Assembly (NCBI GenBank): GCA_045636085.1
Contig: JAZTWU010000078.1
Coordinates: 1-43,562, forward strand
Length of the DNA stretch: 43,562 bases
Origin: Eubacteriales bacterium
Lineage (GTDB): Bacteria; Bacillota; Clostridia; Oscillospirales; CAG-272
Direction: 5' to 3'
Under the pieces are notes generated by a model that was not told the origin of the DNA, did no database searches, and saw only the letters and a list, made by a program, of their open reading frames with translations. Position numbers and translations under genes: made by a program. Shown piece by piece: positions 23,352-38,407 of the stretch (the first letter of the stretch is position 1; each line of letters starts with the position of its first letter).

Positions 23352-23404
23352 TTTTTCGGCTGCTTTGAAATTCAAAGCCGATTTTTGAAAATAGTTATTT
23401 ACAT

Positions 23405-23443
23405 AAAAAAGGCTTTCGCGCGTTTTTCGCGAAAGCCTTTTTT
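23405..23443. terminator. Bidirectional terminator
   Basis: AAAAAAGGCTTTCGCG / CGCGAAAGCCTTTTTT between convergent genes. Confidence 0.88.
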
Positions 23444-23456
23444 ATTTTGCTTTAAG

Positions 23457-24749
23457 TCACCAAGTGCACTCGTAAATGCCGTTTTCGCCGCGCGTGATGG
23501 AAACGCCATAGGGAAGTGAAAGCTCCTTCAGTCTTTGCATAAAGGATTCGTCCCTTGCGGGCTGTGGAAGTCCCTCCAGATGCTTTCCATCGCCAAGGCT
23601 TGCCACGATGGGCATCAGCTTCAGCGTTTTCAGCCGCTTTCCGTCGGTTTCCCAGAAGGGGATCACGGCCTCGCGCATTTCCTTTTGCGCCATAAGACCG
23701 CGCGTGAAGTCTTGCGATCGCTTTTTGAGGAGCTCCATCACGGAGTCGTCGCTCGTCATTCCCTCCTTCGCATAGAAGTCCTCGGGCGCGAAGGCCACAT
23801 CGTAAAGCTGGATAACGAAATCGCCGAGCGAATAGAAGATGGGCTTTTCCTTATAAACCTCAATGGCGCGCAGTAGGTGCGGCCCGTGGCCGATCACGGC
23901 ATCCGCTCCAAAATCCACGATCTCGTGCATCAGTTGCTTGAAAAACTGCGGCACGGCGGTCTTGTCCATTCCCTCGATCTGATGGGTATGAACCGAAACG
24001 ATCACATAGTCCGCGCTCATCTCGGCCTCGTGGATGGAGGCCTTCAACCGCTCGATATCTTTTTTATTGATATCATAGTGAACGCCGTAGTCCTCGCCGA
24101 GAAGGAACACCTGATCTCCGATCTCGCAAACGCCGTCAGCAAGCGGAGGATAATACCCCTCTGCGCGGGTGATCATCTTCGCGCAGTTGATGCCCGAGAG
24201 ATCGCCAACGCGGCAAAGCGCCTCGAATTCCGCCTTCGGAACGATTACCTTTCTCGTGATGCGAAGGCCGTTAATGCCCGGGCGCCCCGCAACGCGGCGC
24301 GCCTGCTCGCCCGCCATCATCGGCGCGCTGAAGCTCGTGCTCACGGAAATGAGCGCAATTCTTCCGTTCGGGGTTTCGAGGTAGGCGGGGGCAGAGGCCT
24401 GATGCAGGTTGTTGCCGATGCCTGCGTGAACGATGCCGCTCTCATTCAGCGTTTCCATCGTTTTCAAAAATCCCTCAAAGGAGAAATCAAAGGCGTGGTT
24501 GTTGTTCGCTGTGGTCATATTGAAGCCGTAGCGGAGCATATCGTAATACATTTCGGGATTGGTGCGCACATAAGTGCCGCCCGAAAACTGAGAAGCAAAG
24601 CATTCTCCCTCGTAGTTCAGCGTCGTTTCCAGATTGAAGAAGCGCGCGTCTCCCTGCCCGATGAAGGCCTTGATGGCATCAAAGCCATCATAGCCCTCGG
24701 CGGGAAGTCTTTTTTGAACGAGAATATCACCGACTGCTGTGAATTTCAT
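23457..24749 (-). CDS. CapA/PGA_cap family metallophosphoesterase-fold protein (no signal peptide)
   Basis: AVGD, NLET, ANNHAFD, SVHTH, GHGPH and YSLGDF motifs. ATG 24749 follows GGAG. Confidence 0.85.
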   Translation of the reverse strand: MKFTAVGDILVQKRLPAEGYDGFDAIKAFIGQGDARFFNLETTLNYEGECFASQFSGGTYVRTNPEMYYDMLRYGFNMTTANNNHAFDFSFEGFLKTMETLNESGIVHAGIGNNLHQASAPAYLETPNGRIALISVSTSFSAPMMAGEQARRVAGRPGINGLRITRKVIVPKAEFEALCRVGDLSGINCAKMITRAEGYYPPLADGVCEIGDQVFLLGEDYGVHYDINKKDIERLKASIHEAEMSADYVIVSVHTHQIEGMDKTAVPQFFKQLMHEIVDFGADAVIGHGPHLLRAIEVYKEKPIFYSLGDFVIQLYDVAFAPEDFYAKEGMTSDDSVMELLKKRSQDFTRGLMAQKEMREAVIPFWETDGKRLKTLKLMPIVASLGDGKHLEGLPQPARDESFMQRLKELSLPYGVSITRGENGIYECTW

Positions 24750-24793: not shown

Positions 24794-26062
24794 TTAGCCT
24801 GCTCCGTTTTCCCTGAATTTGCGGAAGGGGCGAAGGGCAAAGGTGATGCTGAGAGCACCGAGCGCAATCATAGCGATCCAAAGCGTTGTCACGATCGGCC
24901 AGCCAAGCGATTCCGCAACAGGGCCGAAAACGCAGTATTGAAGCGTGAAGCCGAGGCTTGCCGCCGCATTCAGAGCGCCCGCCGCCGTTCCGTTCTTTTT
25001 ATAGGGTATAAAGCGCATATTGAAATGCTGTGTGAGAAGAACGGTGGGGGAGAGGAGCATCGAAATGCAGCAGAGCGCGATCACGATCAAGGCAGGCGGC
25101 AGGGCGCCGACAAAGCGCAAAAGCACCGCAAAGGGAATTGCAAGGCAGAACATTGCGATGAAGCAAGCAAGCTCGTTTTTGATGAGCCTCGGAAAAACGA
25201 GAAAGCGCACGATCACCGTGCCTGCAATGCCCGCAAAAATGATCAGCGTATTGAGAAGGTTGCCGAGCATCGGAGAGATGCTCTCATAGCTTTGCATCAG
25301 CATCGTGGAGGAAAGGGTTTTGGTTCCGTTTTCCACCATAGCGCGCAAAAGCACGGCCACCATCATCGCATAAAAGCCGCTGGCCAGGAAGAGCGCCGCC
25401 GTGCTTCTTTGCGGCACCCGCGCGCTCGATTCCCGCTTTTCGACCGCCGCCGTTTCAAGGTCCTTTTTCAGAAGAGGACTGAGCTTTTGGCAAAGGATCA
25501 GAAGCGCGATCGCCAGCACGATTAAAACGATGGAGGAAATCGCAAAATTGTATTGCCACTTGGGAACGACGGCGGAAACTGCATAGGTAATAACAAGTCC
25601 GCCCGAGCTTGCAAAGGAGATAAAGAATATCATCTGCGAGCGATCGCTGCGCACAAGCTGGGAGGAGATGATCTTGAAGATCGCGGGCCAAAGCGAAAAC
25701 TGGACCATTGCATTGAAGATCCAGGCGATCAGCATCACGAAGAAATTCTGATTGATGAAGATCACCGCGTTGGCAAGGGCGCTTCCGAGAAGGCCAATCA
25801 CGATGAGCCTCTCGGGGCTGTATTTATCTGCGAAAACGCCGCCGAGGATCTGCAAAGGGGTATAAACAGCGTAAAAGGCGGCATTGATCAGGCTCGCCTG
25901 CGTCAGCGTCAGCGCGCCCTCGTCCACGATGGCGGCAAGCGCACCGGAGAAGCAGCTTTTCGTCATATAAACCAGCGCATAGGTGATCCATATGAAGACG
26001 AAGAGCATTCGGCTGATGCGCTTGTTTTCAAGATGCACACCGGGATCCTTGAGAAAATGCAT
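24794..26062 (-). CDS. MFS transporter
   Basis: About 12 hydrophobic segments, GGVFADKYS loop and GTAAGALN. Confidence 0.88.
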   Translation of the reverse strand: MHFLKDPGVHLENKRISRMLFVFIWITYALVYMTKSCFSGALAAIVDEGALTLTQASLINAAFYAVYTPLQILGGVFADKYSPERLIVIGLLGSALANAVIFINQNFFVMLIAWIFNAMVQFSLWPAIFKIISSQLVRSDRSQMIFFISFASSGGLVITYAVSAVVPKWQYNFAISSIVLIVLAIALLILCQKLSPLLKKDLETAAVEKRESSARVPQRSTAALFLASGFYAMMVAVLLRAMVENGTKTLSSTMLMQSYESISPMLGNLLNTLIIFAGIAGTVIVRFLVFPRLIKNELACFIAMFCLAIPFAVLLRFVGALPPALIVIALCCISMLLSPTVLLTQHFNMRFIPYKKNGTAAGALNAAASLGFTLQYCVFGPVAESLGWPIVTTLWIAMIALGALSITFALRPFRKFRENGAG

Positions 26063-26066
26063 TTTC

Positions 26067-27557
26067 TTATTTTTCTTCGAACATTGCGTTGATCTCGGTG
26101 AGCGTCTTTCTCACGAGCATCTCGCCGCCGATATGTCCTGCCGTGCCGCTTCCGACGAAGGCGGAATAGTGGCTGCCCTGCTCAGCCTTCTCGGTGGGCA
26201 GATAGCCGTAGGAGCCGCAGGAAAGCTGGCAAAGGAAGGTCTGCTTTGCGAGCGAGCGCGCACGGATCTGGTTGCCGTAGTTAAGGAAGAGCTCGTAGGG
26301 GTTGGTTGCCAAAGCAATGTCGCCAAGGCGGGCAATGTGAATCTCGATGGGGTAGAGATCCATCGTCTGCTGAAGCTGATATCTTGCAACGATACCGCTG
26401 TAAATCTGCATATGTGCGTTGTCCTCGTAGGAAACGTCGCCCTCAAGGTTGTCAAAGAATTCCTTGATGGTGCGAAGCGCGCTGTTGTATTCTGCAACGG
26501 TCACGCGGCGAAGCGGCATCTCCATCGTCACATTCTTGTGCACGAACTCGGTCTCGGTAACGAATTCGGCCACGTCCTCGAGTGCCCAGAAGATCTCGTT
26601 TGCGATTCTCTTTGCGGCGAGCTCACAGCCCTTAACGTCAAACATCGAGGGATCGGCTCTTCTCGGAATCACCTTCTCGCGGTGGATGTTAGGGTCGTTC
26701 TTGCAAACGGGGGAGTCAACCCAGCGGATCAGATCGCGGGGGCAAAGGTCGCCCGCGGGAGAGATCATACAAAGGAAGTTGAGATCCTCGCCGAATTTTT
26801 CGCGCAGAATTCTCTTCACCTTGCCGACATAGTCGGAGGAAATGAAGTTCTGATGCTCCAGCACCTGTGCGGTGCAGGCAATGTTGGCAACAACACCCGT
26901 CAGCTTCTTATTCTGATCGTAGGTGAAGAGAAGCTCGATACCGCTGTCGTTTCCTGCCTCAAGCTCGGTGAAGTTCGCGGTGTTCGAGTTGCCCCACATC
27001 TTGGCGGAGCCGTCATCGTAGCAAACTCTGCGGCACATACCAACGGCCGCACGGCCGAAGCCGCAGGCGTATGCGCCCTCGGCGCGGTTGTTCCAGGCCT
27101 CCATAGCGGCCTTTGCGATTCTTTCAACGAGGAACTGCTTTGCCTCCTCGCCGCGGATGATGTCGGCGGAATCGTCGGATACGCGGGGGGCGTACTTCAC
27201 GCCCTCGGGCATCAGTGCGGTCAATGCCTTCAGGGCAGAGGAAAATCCGTCGCTTCTGTCAGCGTATGCAAAGGAGGAGTGCGTATGAATGCAGCTGATG
27301 ATGAGCTTCTCCTTGTCGAAGCCGCAGTCATCGGGAAGATAATCGCGCACGGCGCAGAGCAGCTTGTAGCTCGTTGCAACGAGGTCGCAGGCGATGAAGA
27401 TCATATGCTCCTCGCCGCATTCCAATGCCAGAGCGCTCACGGCAATGGGGGTTTCCACCTCGCCGCTGATTCTTTCGTAGAGCTGGCCTGCAAGATCCAC
27501 TCTTCTTCCGTAAGGAGTAATGTCAACCTCGCTCCAACCGATTTTAATCTTATTCAT
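26067..27557 (-). CDS. Neutral/alkaline ceramidase-like metallohydrolase, paralog A
   Basis: IGWSEVDITP, CDL, IHTHSS, SSDY, AGD, PYELF and YGYLPT motifs. AAGGAG RBS. Confidence 0.6.
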   Translation of the reverse strand: MNKIKIGWSEVDITPYGRRVDLAGQLYERISGEVETPIAVSALALECGEEHMIFIACDLVATSYKLLCAVRDYLPDDCGFDKEKLIISCIHTHSSFAYADRSDGFSSALKALTALMPEGVKYAPRVSDDSADIIRGEEAKQFLVERIAKAAMEAWNNRAEGAYACGFGRAAVGMCRRVCYDDGSAKMWGNSNTANFTELEAGNDSGIELLFTYDQNKKLTGVVANIACTAQVLEHQNFISSDYVGKVKRILREKFGEDLNFLCMISPAGDLCPRDLIRWVDSPVCKNDPNIHREKVIPRRADPSMFDVKGCELAAKRIANEIFWALEDVAEFVTETEFVHKNVTMEMPLRRVTVAEYNSALRTIKEFFDNLEGDVSYEDNAHMQIYSGIVARYQLQQTMDLYPIEIHIARLGDIALATNPYELFLNYGNQIRARSLAKQTFLCQLSCGSYGYLPTEKAEQGSHYSAFVGSGTAGHIGGEMLVRKTLTEINAMFEEK

Positions 27558-27611: not shown

Positions 27612-28931
27612 TTAAACGCCGACCTCGGCCGTCTCGGCGGCCTGTGCCACCTCGATGCGCAGCTTGTGCGCCTTGGAGATGACGAATTGCATCACCAGCG
27701 TCACGATGAGCATAATGCCCGCGCAAACGAAGAGGATGGGCGTATAGGTGCCAACGATATCGAAGCAGAGGTTTACGGCAGGCGTTCCAAGCGCATAGCC
27801 CGTAACGTTCACCGAAACGAAGAGACCGAGCACCTTTTCATAGGAATGCTCTCCGAAAAGATCGGAGGCATAAATGGGAAGCATAATCGTCTCCAGCGGA
27901 AGTGCCAGAGAGGAGAAAATGCTGTAAATCATCGCGATCATCATACCGATGGGGGAATTCGTGATCACAGCAAGCAGGAAGATTACGACCGCCGCCGTGA
28001 TGGAGCACATGCTCGTGGTGAATCGAAGCCCAAGCTTATCGTAGATCACGCCCGTGAGAAACTTGAAGCCTGCCAGCGCCAGCGAATGGAAGCTCATCGC
28101 ATATGCAACGTATTCTGCCGAAAGGCCAACGTCGCGCATATGCGCCTTGGCAATACCCGTGATGCCCTGAAGGCAAAATCCCGTGAGGAAGATGCAAACG
28201 AGAGCGATATAGAAATAGGACATCTTGGTGGCCCTGCTGTACGGAATTCCGGGCCAAGGTTCGCCGCGCCCCTTTTTCTTTTTGTGCACGGTCTTGCTTT
28301 CGGTATAGTATTTGGGGGATTCCTTCATAAAGATCAGCACGAGGATGCCAACGGCGAGCACCGCAACGCCGGAGATAAAATAAGCGTTTCGGTAGCTTTC
28401 TCCGCCCGCCTCAATGATGGGGGAGAGAATCTGGATGGCGATCGCTCCGCCGATACCGTTGGCGGCAAGCACCGCGCCCATAATCGTGCCGCGGTTTTCC
28501 TTGCACCATTTGTTAACCACACAGCCGATCATCGTCGTTCCCGTCCAGGAAAATCCGATGCCGAGCAAAACGCCTCCGAGATAGAACATAAAGAGGTTAT
28601 TTGCAAGCGCGTAGCAGGCCATCGAGCCGGCAAGTGCGGCGATGCCCGCCAGCATCAGATTCTTCGTTCCGAATTTAAAGACGAGCGCGCCGAAGAAAAG
28701 GTTCACGATCGCGTTTGCTATGTAGCGGAAGGTATCGTTTAAGGAGAAGAGACTGCGGTCGATGCCGAGCTTTTTCGTCACAACATCGAGATAAAGGCTT
28801 TTCGTGGAGCTGCAAAAGCCCAGCGTGATCATCACGGTGAGAAAGCAAACGCCAACGACGATCCATTTATAATCGAGGCGGAAGCCACTGCTCTTTTGCA
28901 GGCCTTTTAAATTTTTGTTTTTTTCTTCCAA
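27612..28931 (-). CDS. MFS transporter (OFA-like)
   Basis: About 12 TM segments, VNKWCKENRGTIMG and GVIYDKLG. TTG start after GGAGG. Confidence 0.88.
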   Translation of the reverse strand: MEEKNKNLKGLQKSSGFRLDYKWIVVGVCFLTVMITLGFCSSTKSLYLDVVTKKLGIDRSLFSLNDTFRYIANAIVNLFFGALVFKFGTKNLMLAGIAALAGSMACYALANNLFMFYLGGVLLGIGFSWTGTTMIGCVVNKWCKENRGTIMGAVLAANGIGGAIAIQILSPIIEAGGESYRNAYFISGVAVLAVGILVLIFMKESPKYYTESKTVHKKKKGRGEPWPGIPYSRATKMSYFYIALVCIFLTGFCLQGITGIAKAHMRDVGLSAEYVAYAMSFHSLALAGFKFLTGVIYDKLGLRFTTSMCSITAAVVIFLLAVITNSPIGMMIAMIYSIFSSLALPLETIMLPIYASDLFGEHSYEKVLGLFVSVNVTGYALGTPAVNLCFDIVGTYTPILFVCAGIMLIVTLVMQFVISKAHKLRIEVAQAAETAEVGV

Positions 28932-28972
28932 GGGGAAAAACCTCCGAAATATCCAAAAAGTGAAGAAGTGAA

Positions 28973-29647
28973 TCAGAAATCAAGGATTGTCTTATCGCCG
29001 TAAACGCCCTTCCAGTCCTTCTTGAAGCCTTCGATGGCGGCGTCGGTCATCGGGTGCGTCACGAGGCTTTTGAGAATGTCATCGGAAACGGTAACGCTGT
29101 GGCATCCGGCCATTTCGCATTTATGCACCTGCTCGGCATTTTTGAAGCTTGCGGCGAGAACCTTGCAGTCCAGTCCGTAGGTCTTCAGAAGGTTCACGGT
29201 TTCCGCAACGACGGCACAGCCGTCGCCGAGGATGTTGTCAAGACGGTTTGCATAAGGTGCAACGAAGGAGGCACCTGCGACGGCGGCAAGAAGCGCCTGC
29301 GCGGGGGTGAAGATGGCCGTGATGGTCACGGGAATGCCCATCTTCTTCAGTATCATCGTTGCCTTCAGACCTTCCTCACCGATCGGGATTTTGATGAAGA
29401 AGTTCCCTCCGAGCCGCTCCTTCAGAAGTTGTGCCTCACGGATGATGTCCTCGGCGGTTTCCTGCGTGGTCTGCACGTGGAGCATTTTCTCGGGGCCGAT
29501 AATTCTGCGGATCTCTTCAAGAAGCGGCCAAAAGTCGGTCTTTTCCTTGGAGATGATCGTGGGGTTGGTCGTCACGCCCGCAAGGGGGTAAAATTCGTTG
29601 CAATGTCTGATTGCGTTAAGATCTGCGGTGTCGAGTATGTAAATCAT
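28973..29647 (-). CDS. fsa: Fructose-6-phosphate aldolase-type member of the transaldolase family
   Basis: ILDTAD, GVTTNP, IKIP (Schiff-base Lys) and LAASFK. Has the FSA-type Gln (HVQT) and Tyr (APYANR) rather than the transaldolase Glu/Phe. Confidence 0.85.
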   Translation of the reverse strand: MIYILDTADLNAIRHCNEFYPLAGVTTNPTIISKEKTDFWPLLEEIRRIIGPEKMLHVQTTQETAEDIIREAQLLKERLGGNFFIKIPIGEEGLKATMILKKMGIPVTITAIFTPAQALLAAVAGASFVAPYANRLDNILGDGCAVVAETVNLLKTYGLDCKVLAASFKNAEQVHKCEMAGCHSVTVSDDILKSLVTHPMTDAAIEGFKKDWKGVYGDKTILDF

Positions 29648-29660
29648 ATCAAGGTCCTCT

Positions 29661-31019
29661 TTATTCGGTAACGAAGTCTACGGCAATGCCAAGGATCGAG
29701 CAAAGGTTCTTGATGCTCTTTCTGTTGTCTCCGTAGGTGATAATATAGTGCTGGCAGGCAACGTTGTCTGCAAATTTTTCAACGTCGCCGATCTTGATCT
29801 CCAGCGCGGAAAGCTGAGGCGCGGGTGCATCCCAGCCGCATTCCTCCCATTTCGGAGGATTCTTTCCTTCGCCGAGGATCACCTGCATCGTGTACTTTCC
29901 GTCCTTATAAACGAGACGGCACATCGTCACGGTTCCGGTCTTCACCTTGGAAACGTTCAGAATGCCCTGAGAGAGCAGGCCGAAGGCCGCGGGAAGCACG
30001 GTGTAGGTCTCGCCGTCCACCATATCGGCGGCAACGAAGTCGGGAACGCCGGCAAGAACGCTCTCCTCGAAGAACTCGTAAAATTCAAGATAGCCCGCAA
30101 GCTGTCCGGTCAAGCGGTGCATCATCAGCTGGGTAACGGCGCCGAGGGAGTCGTTCTCGGGCACGGTGGTGTAGCCATCCTCGGAGAGGAGCATAAAGAT
30201 GGGCGCGGGCGGGAAGCCGCAGAGCTTCTTCATTCCGTCCACATCCTTCAAAGAGATCGCCTTATAGCCTCTCTCGTCTGCAATGGCCTTCACGGCGAGA
30301 TAATAGCCTGCGGCCTTCATCATCGCCTCCTCGTTTGCGGGCTTGAGGAAGTTCCACTTGAGGATTCTTCCGTTCACGATCTCGCGCTTCTGTGCGTCGG
30401 AGAGAGCCTCGTATCTCTGCTGGATCTCCAGCATTTCGAAGGTCTCGATCTCGATGCCCGTCTGCTTCTTGAGCGAAAGGCCGTCGTAAAGCGTGCCGTA
30501 AAGGTTCATATCGCGGTAGCCTGCCATGCCCACCTTGTCCGTGAGCAGCTGCTTTGCGGCGATCGCGGCGCGGCAGTAGTCTGCAACCTCTGCGCTTCTG
30601 GTCTTCTTGCCGATGATGTCGTAAACGTATTTAAACTTGTAGCCGAGGCCCTCAAAGGTGCCGCGCAGGCCCGTCGTTCCTGCCTGATCGGCGGTCGTCA
30701 CAAGTCTGTCGCCCTCATACCAGCCGCAAAGTCCCCAAAGAACCATAGGCAGGTGGCGATAGTGCTCGGTCACCTTCACAACGGCGTGCGTGGGAATCCA
30801 GCCCGCAATGCAGACAACGAGCGCATCGAAGCTCTCCTTTGCCAGCGCATTCACGGCGCTCTTCACCTGCGTTTCCTCGTAATCGTCTGCCACGGGGTAA
30901 ACCGAAACGAGCTCAAGTCCCTCGTCCTTCAGTGCCTTTTCAGCGGCAGAGCATTTTCTGATGATCACGTCCACGGGGGTGTTTACCTCGCCGAAACCGA
31001 TAAATCCTATTTTAGCCAT
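29661..31019 (-). CDS. L-fucose/L-arabinose isomerase-family sugar isomerase
   Basis: N-terminal IGFIGFG, central PENDSLGAVT (E-x-D metal motif), TVTMCRL and C-terminal QHYIITYGD. ATG 31019 follows AAGGA. Confidence 0.7.
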   Translation of the reverse strand: MAKIGFIGFGEVNTPVDVIIRKCSAAEKALKDEGLELVSVYPVADDYEETQVKSAVNALAKESFDALVVCIAGWIPTHAVVKVTEHYRHLPMVLWGLCGWYEGDRLVTTADQAGTTGLRGTFEGLGYKFKYVYDIIGKKTRSAEVADYCRAAIAAKQLLTDKVGMAGYRDMNLYGTLYDGLSLKKQTGIEIETFEMLEIQQRYEALSDAQKREIVNGRILKWNFLKPANEEAMMKAAGYYLAVKAIADERGYKAISLKDVDGMKKLCGFPPAPIFMLLSEDGYTTVPENDSLGAVTQLMMHRLTGQLAGYLEFYEFFEESVLAGVPDFVAADMVDGETYTVLPAAFGLLSQGILNVSKVKTGTVTMCRLVYKDGKYTMQVILGEGKNPPKWEECGWDAPAPQLSALEIKIGDVEKFADNVACQHYIITYGDNRKSIKNLCSILGIAVDFVTE

Positions 31020-31084
31020 GGTAAAAATCCTTTCAAATTTTTTTGTGCTTTTGCGCCTTTGGGCGCATAGAGGAAAATCCTCTT

Positions 31085-32482
31085 TCAGTTGTTCAGAAGC
31101 TTGTCGTATGCAAGGTAGCGCGCGTAGCACTCGCTGTAATCCACGCCGCGACTTTCAAAAACCTTGTCAAGCTCAATTTTTTGCGCCGCAGCTTCAACGC
31201 TCTCGAAGGCACCGATGCCAACCGCGGCTAAAATGGCCGAGCCGAGGCAGGCGGTTTCCTTGTTTTTCAGCGTCACGAGGCGCTTATTTGTCATATCTGC
31301 CTTCATCTGGCACCAAAGGGGGCTGTTTGCACCGCCACCCATTGCGCGGATCTCGTCCACGGAAAGACCGAGATAATCCAGATTGGACTTCAGCATACAG
31401 GCAACCGATTCCATCACGGCACGAACGAAGTGCGCGCGTGTGTGCTCGGTCGTCAGCCCCGTGAAGCTACCGCGTGCGGCAGGGTTGTATTTCGGCATCG
31501 TCGATCCGCAAAGGTAGGGAAGGAAGGTGAGTCCGTCGCTTCCTGCGCTCACGCTCTCGGCAAGTGCGTCGAGCTCGCGGAAGGAGAAGCTTTCGCAAAG
31601 CGCGTTTTTGAACCATTTGAGTGCCATACCCGCCGTCGGTGTCCAGGAAAGAAGGCAATATTTGTCGTCGTAGTTATAGTGGCAAGGAACGATGCTTTTT
31701 GCATCGTATGCGGGAACGGTTTCGGAGGGGAGGAAGATCACCATCGTCGTTCCCGTCATCACGCTGACGGTGCCCTGCTTGACAACGCCCGCGCCGATGG
31801 CGCCCGCGATCTGATCGACGGCGCCCGTAACGACTCTCGCTCCCTCGTTTTCTCCACCCTCGACCGCGCTGGAATAAAGCGCGGGGAGCATATCCCTTGA
31901 AACGCCGATGAAATCCAGCATTTCATCCCACCAACAGGCCTTGTGAATGTCAAAATAAATGGTGGAGGACTGAAGGGTTTTTTCCGAAATGAATTTGCCC
32001 GTCATTTTATAAAGGATCCAGTCCTCAAGCAAAAAGACCTTTTTCGTTTTTGCAAAAACCTCGGGCTCGTTACGCTTCACCCAAAGAAGCTTGCAGGCAG
32101 GCCAGGTCGCGGTGATCTCGGGCTGACCCGTGATCTCGTAAACGCGCTGATGGCCGAAATGCTCCTCGATGATCTTCGCCTCCTCCACGGCGCGGTTGTC
32201 CAGCCAAACGATGGCAGGGCGCACGGGCGTTCCGTTTTCGTCGGTGAGAATCAGCGTTTCGCATTGCGTGTCCACGGCAAGCGCATCAAGAGAAAGCTCG
32301 GCCTTGATCTTTTCAAGCTCACCCTTCACGATTTCCCAATATTTTTCGCCGTCAAATTCCACGGTGTCGCCGTGTGCATCCAGCGTGTAATCGGCGGTGA
32401 GGGAAATTTTCTGCTCCAGAGCCTCGTTGAAGACCGCGGTTTTCACCGAGGTCGTTCCAATGTCGATTCCGCAAAAATTCAT
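31085..32482 (-). CDS. FGGY-family carbohydrate kinase (xylulokinase-like)
   Basis: GIDIGTTSVK, PAIVWLDNRA, GAVDQ, FLPYL.G...P, GGGANSPLWCQMKAD and LGSAILA. Confidence 0.92.
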   Translation of the reverse strand: MNFCGIDIGTTSVKTAVFNEALEQKISLTADYTLDAHGDTVEFDGEKYWEIVKGELEKIKAELSLDALAVDTQCETLILTDENGTPVRPAIVWLDNRAVEEAKIIEEHFGHQRVYEITGQPEITATWPACKLLWVKRNEPEVFAKTKKVFLLEDWILYKMTGKFISEKTLQSSTIYFDIHKACWWDEMLDFIGVSRDMLPALYSSAVEGGENEGARVVTGAVDQIAGAIGAGVVKQGTVSVMTGTTMVIFLPSETVPAYDAKSIVPCHYNYDDKYCLLSWTPTAGMALKWFKNALCESFSFRELDALAESVSAGSDGLTFLPYLCGSTMPKYNPAARGSFTGLTTEHTRAHFVRAVMESVACMLKSNLDYLGLSVDEIRAMGGGANSPLWCQMKADMTNKRLVTLKNKETACLGSAILAAVGIGAFESVEAAAQKIELDKVFESRGVDYSECYARYLAYDKLLNN

Positions 32483-32603
32483 AAAAGTCTCCATTCTGTC
32501 GCGGTCAGCGACTGCAGCCGCGCGATCCCCCGCCGCAGAGGGCAGGGGATGCGCTGATGTTTTTTTCGGCCGAGTGCTCGGCCGATGCAAAGAATAAAGC
32601 CGA

Positions 32604-33224
32604 TTATCTCTTCAGCTGAAGGTCGTAGTGAATATCGTAAGCCTTCTCCTCGTCGGTGAACTTGTGAAGGGTGTTCACAACCTCGCCGCCGTTCCACTTG
32701 CGATCCTCAACGTCCTCGGTCGTACCCATAACGGTAACGTTCAGCTGGCGACGGCGTGCGCGCACGTGATCCCAGTCAACGAAATAGATGTGGGCAAATT
32801 CGCCGCCATCAAGAACGCCATCCTTGATGGTCATTGCTTCGCTTCTGCCGAAGAAAACGGAGCGAAGGTGGCCGTCGGTATTCATAGAGGTGTAGTCACC
32901 GGGCTCGTTCACGTATCTGCCGAACTTGGAGTGGATGGGGCCGGGATGACGGTAGTCGCCCTCGTTCACGTAATCGGGGATCATCTTTCTCATAATGTCG
33001 AGAAGGTCGTGCTGAAGAAACTCGAGATCGAAGGAATCGATGTCGTGGGAGCACTCCTGGATCATAACGGAGCAGGTGGTGTGGTGGGATGCAAGGGTAA
33101 CGGTTCCGTTCTTAATGCCGGAAGCCTTCACGATCTCGATAACCTCCTTGGAAACATCGTGGAAGGTGGGGATCCAACCTCTGCTCTGCAGCTCAATCTC
33201 TTTCTGAAAAACCTTGAATTCCAT
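32604..33224 (-). CDS. YjbQ/UPF0047 family protein
   Basis: SGIKNG...HHTTCSVMIQE, YRH, NTDGHLRS and IYFVDWD motifs. Confidence 0.85.
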   Translation of the reverse strand: MEFKVFQKEIELQSRGWIPTFHDVSKEVIEIVKASGIKNGTVTLASHHTTCSVMIQECSHDIDSFDLEFLQHDLLDIMRKMIPDYVNEGDYRHPGPIHSKFGRYVNEPGDYTSMNTDGHLRSVFFGRSEAMTIKDGVLDGGEFAHIYFVDWDHVRARRRQLNVTVMGTTEDVEDRKWNGGEVVNTLHKFTDEEKAYDIHYDLQLKR

Positions 33225-33269
33225 GGTAAAAATCTCCTTTTAATATGTATTGTTTTTTTGATAGCAAAA

Positions 33270-33872
33270 TTATTTTTTCTCGGCGTTGAGTCGCTCGCCG
33301 ATAGCGCCGCCGGGATGGATCACGGCGAATTGCTCGTTCTGATAGCCCGTTTCCTCGATCAGCGCCGTCTGCAATGCGTGGAAGATCATAGCAAGCGCGG
33401 TGGAGGAGGTCGTTCCCTGCGAGTTGTATTTGTCCGTCTCGCGGTTCACGTATTGCTTCAGCACGACGTCTGCTCCCAAAGCAAGGGGGGAGGTGAGGTT
33501 TTCGGTCACGGTGATGACCTTCACGCCCTTTTTCTTGCAGATCTCAAGAATGGGGAGAAGCTCGCCCGTTTTTCCGCCGCGGGATGCAAGCAGCATCACG
33601 TCGCCCGCCTGCAAAAATCCCATCGCGCCGTGCACCGCCTCCGCAGGGGAAACGAAGCGCGCGGGCTGCTCGATACAGCACATCAGGTGCGCAAAGTGCC
33701 GGCACATAATGCCGGAATGACCGCAGCCTGCCGCACCGATGCGGGGCGCATCCTTCAGGAGTGCAACCGCCTTGGAGAAGGCCTCCTCGTCAAAATAATC
33801 GAGCATTCCCTTGATGCATTCGTATTCGATCTCGTAAGCCGCCTTGGCGGCGATCAAAGCTTCCTTTTTCAT
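33270..33872 (-). CDS. SIS-domain sugar-phosphate isomerase, KdsD/GutQ-like, lacking CBS domains
   Basis: GCGHSG, PAEAVHGAMG, SRGGKTGE, TTSST and HPGG.IG. Confidence 0.88.
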   Translation of the reverse strand: MKKEALIAAKAAYEIEYECIKGMLDYFDEEAFSKAVALLKDAPRIGAAGCGHSGIMCRHFAHLMCCIEQPARFVSPAEAVHGAMGFLQAGDVMLLASRGGKTGELLPILEICKKKGVKVITVTENLTSPLALGADVVLKQYVNRETDKYNSQGTTSSTALAMIFHALQTALIEETGYQNEQFAVIHPGGAIGERLNAEKK

Positions 33873-33889
33873 CTTGGTCTCCTTGCGCC

Positions 33890-34591
33890 TTAAGCGTGAA
33901 GCTCATCCCAGGCCTTGCGCAGGTTGTAGAGCATCTCCTCTACCATTGCATAAGGATCCTTCGCCTTGAGAACGCCGCTGGTCGAGCCCGTAGCCTGTGC
34001 GCCGAGCTTGATCGTGTTGTAAACGTCCTGTCCGTTCGAAATGCCCGCGCCCTGGAGCACCATAATATCGGGGTTGATCTCGCGCACGGTCTTGATCGTC
34101 TCGATCACGTAGTTGGAGTCGCTCGTCGTTCCCGTTCCGATCAGCTCGGTCGGCTCTGCAACGATGAGGTTCGGCGCCATTTTCGCAATGCGCTTCACAT
34201 CCTCCACAGTGTCGGCACAAACGATGGTTGCAAGTCCAACCTCGTCTGCGCGGCGGATGGTCTTTTCCAGCGTTTCCATATCAAGGGGCTTCTCGGCGTG
34301 GTTCAGCATAACGCCCTTGGCGCCTGCCGCCTTCACAGCCTCGGGAAGAACGCTTCCGAGACCTCTTCCGGGCACGAGCGCATCCATATGCTGTGCGAAA
34401 ACGAGAATTCTTTCGGTGTTCTCGGCCAGCATCTGAATGTCGGTGTATTGAGGGGTGACGATCACGTCCACATCGTATTTCATCGCCGTCTTATCGATCA
34501 CCTTTGCGAGCTTCAGCATCGCCTCGCCCCAAATGATCGCTTTCGGGCCGATCTCAAAAAACGGGGGCTTGATGTCAAAATTCTTAAGCAT
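33890..34591 (-). CDS. Archaeal-type triose-phosphate isomerase family protein (second, divergent TIM)
   Basis: VFAQHMD, GVMLNHAE, AEPTELIGTG, GAGIS and SGVLKAKDP. N-terminal GPK replaces NxK. Confidence 0.85.
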   Translation of the reverse strand: MLKNFDIKPPFFEIGPKAIIWGEAMLKLAKVIDKTAMKYDVDVIVTPQYTDIQMLAENTERILVFAQHMDALVPGRGLGSVLPEAVKAAGAKGVMLNHAEKPLDMETLEKTIRRADEVGLATIVCADTVEDVKRIAKMAPNLIVAEPTELIGTGTTSDSNYVIETIKTVREINPDIMVLQGAGISNGQDVYNTIKLGAQATGSTSGVLKAKDPYAMVEEMLYNLRKAWDELHA

Positions 34592-34630
34592 AAAAATCCT
34601 CCTGAAAATTTTAAATTATTACACATAATA

Positions 34631-34746
34631 ATTATACAACCGCGCCCCTTGCTTGTCAAGAAAAAACTTTTTTATTCTTTCGTTTTTTTAAAATCCGCAA
34701 GAAAAACGAAAGTTTTATTGACAAAAACGAAAGACGATGCTATACT
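34631..34746. promoter_or_regulatory. Divergent sigma-A promoters with three AAAAACGAAAG operator-like boxes
   Basis: Minus strand: TTGACA(34659-34654)-17 bp-TATAAT. Plus strand: TTGACA(34718)-17 bp-TATACT. Boxes at 34677-34687 (inverted), 34702-34712 and 34723-34733. Confidence 0.8.
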
Positions 34747-34778
34747 AAGAAAAAAGAGGAAGGGAAAAGGTGCATTTT

Positions 34779-35537
34779 ATGACCTCGGAGCAGAGAAAAG
34801 AGAAGATTTTGCAGCTTCTGAAGGAGAACGGAACCGTGCGCGTCACGAGCCTCAGCCGCCTTTTCGGTGTCAGCGAGGTAACGGTGCGCGCCTATCTTGA
34901 GGATATGGAGGGGAAGGGGCTTCTTTCCCGCGTGCACGGCGGTGCGGTGAGCACCTATAAGCCTTATTACAGTATGAATCTCGGCCAGCGCCTGGAGGCC
35001 AACCAAAGGGCGAAGGTTGCGATCGCGGAGCGCATCAGCGCGCTGATCCAGCCAAACGATACCGTGATGCTGAACGCAGGAACCACCACGCTTCTCGTTT
35101 TTCGCCGATTTCCCGCCGAATATAATCTCACGATCGTCACGAATTCGATCTCCATTGCCTTGGAGGCCTCGGGCAATCCGAATTACACGGTGATTTTGGC
35201 GGGCGGATCGGTGAATACGAAATATCAGTTCACCCACGGAAGCGATACCGTTGCCCAGCTGAAGCGCTATCACGCGGATAAGCTGATCCTCTCGGTGGAC
35301 GGGATTTCGACCGAGCAGGGCTTCACGACCTATTATAACACCGAGGCGCCTGTGGCGGAGGCAATGCTGGCACAGTCGGATTGCTGTATCGTTGCGGCCG
35401 ACCGATCGAAATTCGGCCATAGCGCCCTTGCCAAGATCTCGGAGCTTTCGGTGGCGGATTATATCGTAACGAGCGAGCGCCCCTCGGCAGAGCTTTCCGA
35501 GGCGCTGGCGGAAAACGGCGTCACGGTCTTGTTTTGA
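34779..35537 (+). CDS. DeoR/GlpR family transcriptional regulator
   Basis: RKEKIL...VSEVTVRAYL...RVHGGA HTH, followed by AGTTT, VTNS and ADRSKFG sensor-domain motifs. Confidence 0.95.
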   Translation: MTSEQRKEKILQLLKENGTVRVTSLSRLFGVSEVTVRAYLEDMEGKGLLSRVHGGAVSTYKPYYSMNLGQRLEANQRAKVAIAERISALIQPNDTVMLNAGTTTLLVFRRFPAEYNLTIVTNSISIALEASGNPNYTVILAGGSVNTKYQFTHGSDTVAQLKRYHADKLILSVDGISTEQGFTTYYNTEAPVAEAMLAQSDCCIVAADRSKFGHSALAKISELSVADYIVTSERPSAELSEALAENGVTVLF

Positions 35538-35602: not shown

Positions 35603-37093
35603 TTACTGTTTTTTAAACATTGCGTTGATTTCGGTGAGCGTTTTTCTCACGAGAAGCTCACCGCCCTCGTGGCCTGCCGTTCCGCTTCCGACGAAGGCGG
35701 AATAATGGCTGCCCCTCTCGGCCTTCTCCGTCGGCAGATAGCCGTAGGCGCCGCAGGCAAGCTCGCAGAGGAAGGTCTGCTTTGCAAGCGAACGCGCGCG
35801 GATCTGATTGCCATAGTTGAGGAAGAGCTCGTAGGGGTTTGTCGCAAGGGCGATATCGCCGAGGCGGGCGATATGCACCTCCACGGGATAAAGATCCATC
35901 GATTGCTGAAGGCGGTATCTGGCAACGATGCCGCTGTAAATCTGCAGGCGTGCGTTGTCCTCGTAGGATACATCCCCCTCAAGGGTATCAAAGAATTGCT
36001 TGATCTTGTTTGCCGCACTCTCATATTCCGAAACGGTAACGCGGCGCAGCGGCATCTCCACCGTCACGGTCTTGTGCTCAAGCTCGGTTTCGGTGACGAA
36101 TTCGGTCACGTCCTCGAGCGCCCAAAGGATCTCAGTCGTCACGCGCTTTGCGATCAGATTGCATCCCTTGATTTCGTACATACAGGGGTCCGTGCGCCGC
36201 GGCGTCACTTTCTCGCGGTAAATGTTGGGATCCTTTTTGAAAATCGGGGAGTCCACCCAGCGGATCATATCGCGGGGGCACATATCGCCCGCAGGGGAGA
36301 TCATACAAAGGAAATTGACCTTTTCGCCGAGCCTTTCGCGCAAAAGGCCCTTCACCTTGCCGACATAGTCGGAGGAAATGAAGTTCTGATGCTCCAGCAC
36401 CTGCGCGGGGCAGGCAATATTGGCAACGACGCCCGTGATCTTCTTCTCCTTATCGTAGGTGAAAAGAAGCTCAATGCCGCTATCGTTTCCGCTCTCAAGC
36501 TCGGTGAAGTTTGCGGTGTTTGCATCGCCCCACATTTTGGCGGAGCCGTCGTCATAGCAAACTCTGCGGCAAAGCCCGACCGCCGCACGGCCGAAGCCAC
36601 AGGCATAAGCTCCCTCGGCGCGGCGATCCCAGGCCTCCATAGCGGCCCTTGCGATTCTTTCAACGAGGAACTGCTTTGCCTCCTCGCCGCGAATGATGTC
36701 AGCGGAATCGTCCGAAACATAAGGGGCATATTTCACGCCCTCGGGGAAAAGCGCGGTCAGCGCGTTCAAGGGGTATGCAAACATATCGCTTCGGTTGGCG
36801 TATGCAAAGGATGTGTGCGCGTGAATGGCGCTGATGATCAGCTTGTTTTTGTCAAAGCCGCAATCCTTTGGCAGATATTCGCGCACGGCGGTGAGAAGCG
36901 TATAGCTTGCGGTGCCGAGATCACAGCCGACGAAGATCATATGCTCCTCGCCGCATTCCAGCGCCAGCGCCGTCACGGCGATCGGGGTTTCCACCTCGCC
37001 GCCGATGCGCTCGTAAAGCTGACCTGCGAGATCCACTCTTCTGCCCTCGGGCGTGATGCTGACCTCGCTCCATCCGATTCTGATCTTATTCAT
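35603..37093 (-). CDS. Neutral/alkaline ceramidase-like metallohydrolase, paralog B
   Basis: 496 aa and colinear with 26067..27557, about 82% aa identity by manual count. Has its own TTGACT/TATAAT promoter at 37135-37162. Confidence 0.6.
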   Translation of the reverse strand: MNKIRIGWSEVSITPEGRRVDLAGQLYERIGGEVETPIAVTALALECGEEHMIFVGCDLGTASYTLLTAVREYLPKDCGFDKNKLIISAIHAHTSFAYANRSDMFAYPLNALTALFPEGVKYAPYVSDDSADIIRGEEAKQFLVERIARAAMEAWDRRAEGAYACGFGRAAVGLCRRVCYDDGSAKMWGDANTANFTELESGNDSGIELLFTYDKEKKITGVVANIACPAQVLEHQNFISSDYVGKVKGLLRERLGEKVNFLCMISPAGDMCPRDMIRWVDSPIFKKDPNIYREKVTPRRTDPCMYEIKGCNLIAKRVTTEILWALEDVTEFVTETELEHKTVTVEMPLRRVTVSEYESAANKIKQFFDTLEGDVSYEDNARLQIYSGIVARYRLQQSMDLYPVEVHIARLGDIALATNPYELFLNYGNQIRARSLAKQTFLCELACGAYGYLPTEKAERGSHYSAFVGSGTAGHEGGELLVRKTLTEINAMFKKQ

Positions 37094-37306
37094 AGCAGTT
37101 CTCCTTTTGTAACCGAAAATGTGTTATCAATTTAATTATACCAAGGAAAAAATGGAAGTCAAGCCTCAACCCGCCGTTTTTATATGGAAAGAAAATGAAT
37201 GTTTTTCATAGGTCTGTGCGAATGCTTCACACCGGCATATTGCTTATTCGTTGCGTTCTTCGCCCTGTCTTGTACGGCAAAAGGTTGAAAGAAAGATCTC
37301 ACCTTG

Positions 37307-37369: not shown

Positions 37370-38269
37370 TTATTTTTCAAAGCAGCCGTATTTTTCCAGC
37401 ACGGTTTTTCCGAGCGTGAAAAGATATTTCTCGAAAGCGGCGCGCAGCTCGAACGGCGGATCGAGAAGCCTTTCATCGGGGGCAAATGGCCGCCTTTTAT
37501 CACCAAAGTTGAAAAATCTGCCAACCTCGAAGGTGAAATAGCCATCGTAGCCGATGGCGAGAAGCCCGTGCATCACATCGTCGAGATTCAGCGTGCCGAG
37601 GAAGGGGCAGAGATGGCTGTCATCCTCGCCCATATTGTCCTGAATATGCAGAGCGCGCAGATGGTGGCCGAGAAGCTTTATTTCCTCGCTTTGGAGCATC
37701 GGCTGCATATTCGCGTGCCCCACGTCCCAGATCGCATGGAAAAGCGGATGCGAAACGCTCTCCACCATCTGCAAAAGATCCCTTGCGTTATCGATCCAGT
37801 AAAGCCCCTCCACGCACATTTTGTTGAAGTTTTCGCAGAGGATGTTAACGCCGTATTTCTCCGCCCTTCGAAGAAGGGGAAGGAAAAATTCCTTGTTTTT
37901 CTCGATCGTTTCCTCTCTTGAAAGTCCTCGCAGATATCCCGAATGCACCACGAGGTTTTTGATCCCCCAGGCGCCGCAGGCGTCAACGCAGCGCATCGTG
38001 TCGGCAAGGAAGCTTTTGTCGGGATCCGAAAGCGGATCGCCCATCGGCGCGTGCGCCTGCACGAGCGTGATCCCAATGGATTTTTGCCCTTCATTCACGG
38101 CATCGAAATAAGAAAGATAATCCTTAGAATAAATGCCGCTTTGCCGATTTCGGTCAATATTGAAATTATAGTCCGCATAGGAAAATCCCGCCTTGCGGAT
38201 ATGAGCCAAGGCCTCGATCTGCGAATCCGTATAGCGGGCGAAATCCCCCGTCGTTGTTGCAAGTCTCAT
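37370..38269 (-). CDS. Sugar-phosphate isomerase/epimerase (xylose-isomerase-like TIM barrel, AP_endonuc_2)
   Basis: VVHSG, LCEN, WDVGHA, LHIQDN.G..D.H..P..G and FTFE. GGAGG RBS. Promoter TTGAAA-17-TATAAT at 38312-38340. Confidence 0.88.
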   Translation of the reverse strand: MRLATTTGDFARYTDSQIEALAHIRKAGFSYADYNFNIDRNRQSGIYSKDYLSYFDAVNEGQKSIGITLVQAHAPMGDPLSDPDKSFLADTMRCVDACGAWGIKNLVVHSGYLRGLSREETIEKNKEFFLPLLRRAEKYGVNILCENFNKMCVEGLYWIDNARDLLQMVESVSHPLFHAIWDVGHANMQPMLQSEEIKLLGHHLRALHIQDNMGEDDSHLCPFLGTLNLDDVMHGLLAIGYDGYFTFEVGRFFNFGDKRRPFAPDERLLDPPFELRAAFEKYLFTLGKTVLEKYGCFEK

Positions 38270-38407
38270 AAAAACCTCCGTGCGCATTGGCGCTGAAAGC
38301 AGTATATGGATATTATATCATAAGGAAGGATTCTTTTCAATACAAAATCCGCAAAAAAAGATCGGAGCGGCAGAGCAAGAATTTTTTTGGAAAATCTCTT
38401 TTCTCTA

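Follow-up and report, generated by a model that had tools for sequence, protein, structure and literature searches.

A stretch of 43,562 nucleotides from Eubacteriales bacterium (CAG-272; assembly GCA_045636085.1, contig JAZTWU010000078.1), referred to below as the window, carries at positions 27612-35537 a gene for a DeoR-family regulator that diverges from seven minus-strand genes of a sugar operon. Gene families were assigned by Pfam and NCBIfam, and the ATG starts of the isomerase and the FGGY kinase were corrected. An original prediction, made from the nucleotide sequence, had named eight genes in this part, and the open reading frames (ORFs) together with Pfam and NCBIfam recovered all eight at the same coordinates and in the same families. 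In transcription order the seven genes encode a triose-phosphate isomerase (TIM)-like protein, a SIS protein, a YjbQ protein, an FGGY kinase, an isomerase (here called ISO), an FSA-type aldolase and an MFS transporter. The features of the divergent locus are as follows.

34770..35537, plus strand: DeoR-family regulator (Pfam, NCBIfam)
34718..34746, plus strand: deoR promoter, TTGACA-17-TATACT, 11/12, with TG (promoter pattern)
34677-34686 (minus), 34703-34712 (plus) and 34724-34733 (plus): candidate DeoR operator, three copies of AAAACGAAAG, between the divergent promoters
34659..34631, minus strand: operon promoter, TTGACA-17-TATAAT, sigma-70 consensus 12/12, facing the operon
33890..34591, minus strand: archaeal-type TIM paralogue, motif F-E-[IV]-G-P-K (Pfam, NCBIfam, alignment)
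33270..33872, minus strand: single-domain KpsF-like SIS sugar-phosphate isomerase, 200 amino acids (aa), no CBS pair (Pfam, NCBIfam)
32604..33224, minus strand: divergent UPF0047/YjbQ protein of 206 aa, C-terminally extended and with a Y-x-H-P-G insertion (Pfam, NCBIfam, alignment)
31085..32482, minus strand: FGGY sugar kinase with both FGGY domains, nearest XylB (Pfam, NCBIfam)
29661..31019, minus strand: ISO, divergent AraA/FucI-fold aldose-ketose isomerase, 452 aa (PF02952, 36.1 bits)
28973..29647, minus strand: FSA-type class I aldolase with Gln59, Lys86, Ala130 and Tyr132 (TAL_FSA, Pfam, NCBIfam, alignment)
27612..28931, minus strand: MFS transporter of the oxalate/formate, lactate and bile-salt type (Pfam, NCBIfam)

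The spacers between the minus-strand genes of the operon measure 13-121 nt. The AAAACGAAAG triplet is a candidate operator of the DeoR protein; a copy with at most one mismatch was present in 15 of 16 homologous spacers between DeoR and TIM-like genes, and the spacing of the three sites (21 and 26-27 nt) was kept in 7 of the 16.

Conservation of the gene cluster

One genome per prokaryotic species was scanned with ISO, which returned 131 relatives, and the best 80 of the 131 loci were kept. All 80 were located in metagenome-assembled genomes (MAGs) of uncultured gut or rumen Clostridia, with ISO identities of 62-93%. Genes on the same strand within 8 kb of ISO were counted in the 27 of these 80 loci that had at least 6 kb of sequence on both sides (full-flank loci). 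Here the FGGY kinase was found in 26 loci, the TIM-like gene in 21, a gene for a 496-aa protein described further below in 20, the SIS and YjbQ genes in 19 each and the FSA gene in 17. The original prediction had proposed a genome-neighbourhood analysis as a check, and the cluster proved conserved, the complete set of these six genes being present on one strand beside ISO in 15 of the 27 full-flank loci. Two of the 27 contained ISO, FGGY and the TIM-like gene only, as did the loci L059 and L062. The arrangement exceeds chance; since the loci are from related MAGs, the counts express conservation and not independent origins. Among 300 other genomes sampled from the order, ISO was detected in 25, the TIM-like gene in 29 and both in 17, and ISO was detected in none of 400 genomes sampled from the rest of the phylum.

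Twelve loci were retrieved by the TIM-like gene alone, and YjbQ was adjacent in all twelve. Five of them (L185-L189) displayed SIS and FGGY and no ISO, with FSA present in four of the five, and ISO is for this reason regarded as an optional entry enzyme. Six of the twelve belonged to a second subfamily, in which the TIM-like protein was 45-57% and YjbQ 42-53% identical to those of the window. These second-subfamily clusters had no FSA and mostly no SIS gene; they carried other AraA/FucI-like isomerases and FGGY kinases, as well as Amidohydro_2, NagA-like, creatininase or metallo-beta-lactamase (MBL) genes.

The enzymes of the operon and the routes they allow

The alignment of the aldolase to E. 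coli FSA (1l6w) covered the whole protein and scored approximately 168 bits, compared to 113-140 bits for short transaldolases; the enzyme narrowly missed the NCBIfam equivalogs TIGR00875 (220.3 versus a cut-off of 245.95) and NF009299 (206.8 versus 214). In FSA, Gln59 and Tyr131 replace the Glu and Phe of transaldolases, and these residues mark the aldolase and the transaldolase type; Ala129 of the E. coli enzyme makes glycolaldehyde or hydroxyacetone favoured over dihydroxyacetone as donor. The alignment placed Gln59, the Schiff-base Lys85 and Tyr131 of E. coli FSA (numbering checked on chain 8s7h_A) on Gln59, Lys86 and Tyr132 of the window enzyme. Asp6, Asn28, Gln59, Lys86 and Tyr132 were kept in all 37 cluster-linked aldolase homologues, down to 44% identity, as was Ala130, the equivalent of Ala129. 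The Gln/Tyr signature that the original prediction had read as aldolase rather than transaldolase type is thereby borne out, and it argues for an enzyme of the aldolase type, for which cleavage rather than transfer is predicted. Unlike its E. coli relatives FsaA and FsaB, with which it shares these active-site residues, the window gene lies inside a conserved sugar operon. We know of no established catabolic pathway for the E. coli FSA enzymes and of no natural role for FSA-type aldolases. The window gene was the only PF00923 gene found in the 85.6%-complete genome.

ISO had no match in a single-sequence search of the PDB. Its profile matched L-arabinose isomerases (E 3e-8), with the invariant Glu289 and Asp291 on Glu306 and Asp308 of AraA; the second catalytic Glu of AraA (Glu333) was not aligned confidently with ISO. 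An AlphaFold2 (AF2) model of ISO (pLDDT 89.6) retrieved AraA/FucI structures by Foldseek with TM 0.80-0.82 and E 1e-28. The equivalog scores remained far from their cut-offs, both for AraA (26.6 versus 622) and for SftI (41 versus 700), the latter being the best NCBIfam model. Sulfoquinovose degradation was considered and rejected on this SftI score, on the lack of sulfonate genes and on the presence of a kinase. The sulfoglycolytic transaldolase pathway (SqvD/SftI), as far as the available text of PMC9594981 describes it, resembles the window in its short PF02952 isomerase (~445 aa) and TAL/FSA-family enzyme, whereas the window has a kinase and a Gln/Tyr aldolase and neither a sulfolactaldehyde reductase or dehydrogenase nor a sulfonate exporter. 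In one cluster with the full gene set, a second FucI-family paralogue (L103:7247-8653) scored 98.6 bits on the sulfoquinovose isomerase model and is adjoined by M20 and GH3 genes.

The kinase scored highest with XylB, below the cut-off (318.6 versus 380.25), followed by fuculokinase (111) and rhamnulokinase (69). Elsewhere the genome encodes Rpe, RpiB in three copies and transketolase, as well as a true FucI, RhaA together with a class II aldolase, and UxaC. L-fucose, L-rhamnose and hexuronates were rejected as substrates on account of these canonical FucI, RhaA and UxaC genes.

The best NCBIfam models of the SIS protein were GutQ (114.2 versus 481), KpsF (113.7 versus 203.7) and KdsD (100.6 versus 505). 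Its closest solved relative was 3fxa of Listeria monocytogenes (143.8 bits), likewise a single SIS domain of ~200 aa, whereas the arabinose-5-phosphate isomerases 5uqi, 3etn and 2xhz reached 58-79 bits; 5uqi and 3etn demonstrate that single-domain arabinose-5-phosphate isomerases exist. 3fxa is reported to be a glucose-6-phosphate isomerase. Relative to KdsD, the SIS protein carries Lys59 to His, Asp90 to Ala and Glu108 to Lys changes, the His being found in 34 and the latter Lys in all of 35 cluster homologues. At position 59, presumably a functionally important one in KdsD, 5uqi and 3etn have Lys and 3fxa has Thr. KdsD residues His88, Glu111 and Glu152 and the HPGG motif were kept in the SIS protein and in 35 of 35 homologues each. 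By these comparisons the protein is classified as a KpsF-clade sugar-phosphate isomerase and not as a demonstrable arabinose-5-phosphate isomerase.

According to the original prediction, a D-arabinose-type aldopentose would be converted to D-ribulose and ribulose-5-phosphate, the SIS protein would form arabinose-5-phosphate, and FSA would cleave this into glycolaldehyde and glyceraldehyde 3-phosphate (G3P), with the TIM-like protein equilibrating the triose phosphate. The FSA signature with Ala at the Ala129 position would suit such a route, as would the ranking of the GutQ, KpsF and KdsD models, the retained SIS residues and the nearness of the kinase to XylB, and a transaldolase bypass could be of value in a genome where no other transaldolase was found. 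We nevertheless consider the route unlikely, mainly for the step through arabinose-5-phosphate: the SIS protein has no CBS pair, differs from KdsD at the three positions above, falls far below the cut-offs of all arabinose-5-phosphate isomerase models and is nearest to a Listeria protein that is not such an isomerase. Ribulose-5-phosphate is moreover already a pentose-phosphate intermediate and requires no dedicated route in a genome with Rpe, RpiB and transketolase, and the genome already has a true FucI at another site. Any free glycolaldehyde would have to be reduced or oxidised, and the operon encodes no reductase or dehydrogenase. YjbQ, the substitution in the TIM paralogue described below and the ceramidase-fold gene would all be left without a role, and the TIM-like/YjbQ pair occurs also in clusters devoid of the aldolase. 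The original prediction further regarded KdsD with FSA as an engineered combination only, which agrees with the available portions of the literature, where the pairing is presented as synthetic in SAGA glycolaldehyde assimilation and in the formation of glycolate from pentoses (PMC13550131, PMC9947464, PMC6900487). These designs share with the window a KpsF/KdsD-family SIS protein and an FSA; they differ in that the window SIS protein is without Lys59 and CBS domains and the cluster further encodes a kinase and an isomerase, along with YjbQ and a TIM paralogue.

The TIM-like protein matched Pyrococcus woesei TIM at 161 bits, and alignments with 1hg3 and 2h6r showed the phosphate loops and the three catalytic residues (Lys, His, Glu) to be retained. 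Two positions ahead of this Lys, where TIM has its active-site Asn, the protein has a Gly. The three catalytic residues were invariant in the alignments of TIM-like homologues; Gly occupied the Asn position in 44 of 45 of them, the other having a gap, and likewise in the second subfamily, at 45-48% identity. The protein passed the PRK04302 subfamily model (201.5 versus 132) and did not reach the TIM equivalog TIGR00419 (104.9 versus 130.6). A canonical enzyme is encoded in the same window.

2378-3115, plus strand: canonical bacterial triose-phosphate isomerase (PF00121, 311.6 bits)

Public records label close homologues of the paralogue "triose-phosphate isomerase", a name that, because of the Gly at the Asn position, is probably an over-annotation.

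YjbQ passed PF01894 (83.6 versus 27) and fell short of TIGR00149 (62.9 versus 67.75). The Y-x-H-P-G insertion is common to both YjbQ subfamilies and missing from classical YjbQ proteins; the window protein belongs to a distinct clade. This clade is rare: of 1.84 billion, 30 representatives reached E <= 1e-30, and many of these were fragments. No other protein of the set is as well conserved as YjbQ (77-99% identity), which has many invariant His, Asp, Glu and Cys residues. A complex prediction for the TIM-like protein and YjbQ scored 0.00 against a mark of 0.32. In E. coli, multicopy yjbQ suppresses a pdxB deletion by a route which, in the available part of the source, seems to yield 2-oxo-3-hydroxy-4-phosphobutanoate (PMC3010111); this is a weak hint, by analogy, that fits YjbQ action on small hydroxy-keto phosphates. 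The original prediction had assigned the TIM-like enzyme to the handling of the aldolase product. The Gly substitution, the canonical TIM of the genome and the presence of the pair in aldolase-free clusters speak against this assignment and, with the fixed adjacency of the two genes, argue that the TIM paralogue would act together with YjbQ on the product of the kinase.

The same data bear on a plainer explanation, a common operon for the use of a pentose or hexose that carries extra copies of central enzymes, in which the TIM-like protein would be a true TIM, the SIS protein a phosphohexose isomerase, FSA a substitute for transaldolase and YjbQ an incidental gene. The public naming of the TIM-like protein and its PRK04302 score agree with this, as do the status of FSA as the only PF00923 gene found, the reported glucose-6-phosphate isomerase function of the Listeria SIS relative and the pentose-phosphate enzymes that Listeria pentitol operons also carry. 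It is made improbable by the canonical TIM and the unreached TIGR00419 cut-off, by the Asn-to-Gly change fixed in two TIM-like subfamilies, by Gln/Tyr in 37 of 37 aldolase homologues and by the strongly conserved YjbQ next to the TIM-like gene in 12 of 12 TIM-anchored loci, which is hard to reconcile with an incidental gene.

The original prediction had also named a tetrose or a branched sugar as an alternative substrate, and both are still candidates. Among the alternatives, a tetrose or tetrulose route has the best precedent and explains the clusters of ISO, FGGY and TIM-like genes only. An aldotetrose would be isomerised to erythrulose and phosphorylated by the FGGY kinase, the TIM paralogue would take the step of EryH by interconverting the 1- and 4-phosphates, YjbQ would take that of EryC as a racemase or epimerase and the SIS protein that of EryI to give erythrose-4-phosphate. 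The FSA-type enzyme would then connect erythrose-4-phosphate with the pool of hexose and heptose phosphates, the genome having no transaldolase. The kinase EryA of the Brucella erythritol pathway is of the FGGY family, as in the window, whereas EryH is a bacterial-type TIM, which counts against the comparison. As described in the accessible text, this pathway (EryA, EryC, EryH/TpiA2, EryI/RpiB, EryD, EryR) combines a kinase and a racemase with a TIM paralogue (EryH/TpiA2) by which the carbonyl of a sugar phosphate is moved, an isomerase of the RpiB type and a regulator of the DeoR family (PMC5992420). The window shares the kinase, the TIM-family paralogue, further isomerases and the DeoR-family regulator. 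It differs in being without a dehydrogenase, in its AraA/FucI-fold entry isomerase, in the SIS protein that stands for RpiB (the window cluster contains no RpiB-type isomerase), in the added FSA-type aldolase and in UPF0047, which replaces or accompanies an EryC-type enzyme, and its TIM paralogue, of archaeal type, is likened to EryH by family. Only a tetrulose, by our reasoning, would let distal phosphorylation of the XylB kind sit beside the carbonyl/hydroxyl pair that TIM chemistry needs. Clusters of ISO, FGGY and TIM-like genes would be complete if housekeeping RpiB, with three copies in the genome, finished the conversion, and the need to connect erythrose-4-phosphate would fit with FSA as the only PF00923 gene found. 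On the other hand, free tetroses are rare nutrients, the Gln/Tyr signature favours cleavage over transfer, there is no dehydrogenase for tetritols, and the recurrent amidase-type hydrolases and the GH28, GH127 and GH39 genes described below are left unexplained; also, we know of no tetrose isomerase with the AraA/FucI fold. The tetrulose route is thus rather doubtful, if less so than the two alternatives already given.

A variant of apiose degradation was suggested by locus L067, where a 70%-identical ISO and a kinase are found beside split transketolase genes and two GH28 genes. Apiose would be converted by way of apulose to apulose-4-phosphate, the SIS protein would form an aldose phosphate, and FSA would release glycolaldehyde and dihydroxyacetone phosphate (DHAP), or else a C2 unit would pass to G3P to give arabinose-5-phosphate, with the TIM step next. 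This chemistry uses ISO, the kinase, SIS, FSA and a triose-phosphate isomerase, and pectin-type glycosidases occur in several loci. The split transketolase is the ordinary form in Clostridia, which lessens the weight of L067. Its enzyme logic is nonetheless shared, as far as the available text goes, with the apsI-aplK-aptAB genes of the D-apiose transketolase pathway (PMC13001218). The window has the same succession of isomerase, kinase and C-C cleavage as this pathway (apsI, aplK, aptA, aptB), with an aldolase instead of the transketolase, for which Pfam scans found no gene in the window. The window kinase and E. coli AplK share only 24% identity, an ISO homologue was present within 9 kb of AplK in none of 80 AplK loci, and the transketolase subunit of L067 is only 37% identical to AptA; on these three grounds apiose by orthology was rejected. 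The tertiary C3 of apiose would moreover leave the TIM paralogue no substrate, and YjbQ and the amidase would stay unexplained, which makes the aldolase variant very improbable as well.

A ceramidase-fold protein and the rest of the probable transcription unit

No strong terminator was found after the MFS gene (27612-28931), and genes on the same strand continue up to a hairpin at 23403-23445. The operon therefore probably continues past the MFS gene, as a predicted transcription unit of ten genes from the TIM-like gene through PGA_cap. The further features are given below, together with a second copy of the 496-aa gene.

26067..27557, minus strand: unk496A, 496-aa neutral-ceramidase-fold protein, probable Zn amidase (profile and AF2/Foldseek)
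24794..26062, minus strand: second MFS transporter, distantly organophosphate/Pi antiporter-like (PF07690, 100.6 bits; TIGR00881, 85.6 bits, far below cut-off)
23457..24749, minus strand: PGA_cap, CapA/MslH-like metallo-enzyme, probable last operon gene (PF09587, 173 bits)
23403..23445, no strand assigned: palindromic terminator-like hairpin, strong, 18 pairs, probable operon end
35603..37093, minus strand: unk496B, second 496-aa copy, 82% identical to unk496A (promoter-like site at 37162..37135)

The two 496-aa paralogues, which the original prediction did not mention, flank the operon, unk496A inside the probable transcription unit and unk496B beyond deoR. Unk496A had no Pfam match. Its profile matched the neutral ceramidases 4wgk and 2zws across the HTHS motif, and with its AF2 model (pLDDT 87) Foldseek retrieved nothing but neutral ceramidases below E 0.001 (E 3e-23 to 3e-21). 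A protein-cluster look-up of a homologue gave only "hypothetical" and ceramidase-like clusters. Going by the modelled fold, unk496A is a probable Zn amidase. Its fold is that of the catalytic domain of 4wgk and 2zws (TMq 0.62-0.65), with which it also has the H-T-H motif in common; it differs from neutral ceramidases in that the unk496 proteins are 13-16% identical to them, have no C-terminal domain, are apparently cytoplasmic and occur in sugar clusters.

The association of this fold with sugar isomerases extends beyond the window. Two loci (L095:3500-6513 and L097:12156-16300) contain three tandem, mutually divergent 496-aa paralogues after ISO and FGGY; these are 27-32% identical to the window copy, and genes for a LacI regulator and a GH28-like protein lie close by. 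Within the same genome, locus L201 (G000:C154:5000-20500) encodes an AraC regulator, two tandem PF04734 proteins, a DegT/DnrJ/EryC1 aminotransferase and an AraA-like isomerase, followed by a GH106-like protein, an FAD oxidoreductase and a GH20 protein. In its gene content L201 resembles a locus for the breakdown of an N-acyl amino sugar. Other hydrolase genes in the related clusters were those of M20 ArgE/DapE-like deacylases (10 of 80 loci), B3-MBL-like genes (5 of 80) and PGA_cap/MslH-like genes (5 of 80), and NagA-like, CE4, creatininase and Amidohydro_2 genes were also present; some related loci carry glycosidases of families GH28, GH127, GH39 and GH29. Because the ceramidase fold and AraA/FucI-like isomerases recur together, with other hydrolases in related clusters, this suggests, circumstantially, that the sugar may arrive N-acylated or otherwise conjugated, from plant or microbial glycans.

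Homologues of the MFS transporter at 27612..28931 were found in 10 of the 80 ISO loci and those of the second MFS transporter in 13 of 80; the type of the former suggests an anionic substrate. For PGA_cap, an ATG at codon 45 of the ORF abolishes the overlap with the upstream gene. The best NCBIfam match of PGA_cap was the lasso-peptide C-terminal Trp epimerase MslH, at 192.7 bits versus a cut-off of 700, which gives a hint of a peptide- or amino-acid-directed activity within the sugar operon. Upstream of unk496B, a PF01261 xylose-isomerase-like TIM-barrel gene (37370-38287) has several paralogues in the genome, and none of the 80 ISO loci contains a homologue. At 9310-11367 of the window, a 685-aa ORF encodes a GT4 glycosyltransferase fused to a polysaccharide pyruvyl transferase domain.

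A proposed pathway and its significance

The reading that we prefer, with a probability of about 0.45, is that of a DeoR-controlled catabolic operon in which an unusual, probably conjugated sugar would be phosphorylated, rearranged by enediol chemistry and cleaved by an FSA-type aldolase. The anatomy of the operon, with its short gaps, consensus promoter and single strong terminator, counts in its favour. The pathway may be depicted as follows: The ceramidase-fold hydrolase would strip an acyl or amide group, after which ISO, as an optional entry, would convert the aldose to a ketose. The FGGY kinase would phosphorylate the hydroxymethyl adjoining the carbonyl region, and the TIM paralogue would then shift the carbonyl by one carbon through an enediol, comparable to EryH/TpiA2 on tetrulose phosphate. 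YjbQ and the SIS protein would isomerise the product further, by a carbonyl shift, an epimerisation or a ketose/aldose conversion. Finally, the FSA-type aldolase would release glycolaldehyde, hydroxyacetone or dihydroxyacetone as the unphosphorylated C2 or C3 carbonyl compound, together with a short aldehyde phosphate that would enter central metabolism.

Several observations weigh against this pathway. The kinase is closer to XylB, by which the distal hydroxymethyl is phosphorylated, than to C1 kinases, and if it is XylB-like a tetrulose alone would give a TIM-type substrate. No enzyme of the cluster reaches an NCBIfam equivalog cut-off, and every specificity is a prediction from sequence. 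As the only PF00923 gene found in the genome, FSA could serve the pentose-phosphate pathway. The idea of a conjugate is circumstantial, since the hydrolase partners belong to many different, unrelated folds and are missing from some loci, and no M20 or NagA-like gene is present in the window itself. All loci are from related uncultured gut Clostridia, with ISO in 25 of 300 genomes of the order and in none of the 400 from elsewhere in the phylum, and five clusters are without ISO. A literature search, in addition, gave no experimental role for YjbQ.

The same kind of search retrieved no paper on the function of UPF0047, no description of UPF0047 with an aldolase, a kinase and an isomerase, and none of an FSA/FGGY/SIS gene cluster. 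The original prediction would have been overturned by a characterised pathway that maps onto the cluster; none does, as judged from the NCBIfam equivalogs, none of which is reached, and from the literature searched. The combination of genes matches no described pathway. An operon of isomerase, kinase and aldolase is itself a known type, to which YjbQ and the modified TIM add two components without an assigned physiological function.

A more specific form of the preferred reading, which must be called speculative and rather unlikely in its full detail, is a "carbonyl walk". A rare sugar, possibly a deoxy- or amino-sugar that the ceramidase-fold amidase would free from its N-acyl form, would be converted to a ketose 1-phosphate, the TIM paralogue, YjbQ and the SIS protein would walk the carbonyl stepwise along the chain, and FSA would release hydroxyacetone or glycolaldehyde and triose phosphate. 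For uronates or 6-deoxyhexoses such a walk is possible for the rarer stereoisomers or amino derivatives only. If true, it would give UPF0047/YjbQ its first physiological function, as a metal-dependent sugar-phosphate isomerase that partners a TIM paralogue, and would be the first natural catabolic pathway with an FSA-type aldolase at its centre. The last step in the sister clusters would then fall to an Amidohydro_2 enzyme instead of SIS and FSA.

Biocatalysis relies heavily on FSA-type aldolases, as do synthetic pathways for glycolaldehyde and formaldehyde, and a conserved operon with an embedded FSA offers a direct way toward the physiological substrate of this enzyme type. UPF0047/YjbQ is a widespread family with solved structures for which we know of no function, and its fixed pairing with a modified TIM provides a concrete and testable hypothesis for one. 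If the TIM paralogue is mislabelled, metabolic models reconstructed from gut MAGs would be distorted. The cluster may also point to a nutrient niche in the guts of ruminants and other animals, based on a rare plant, microbial or N-acylated sugar, that is missed by current models.

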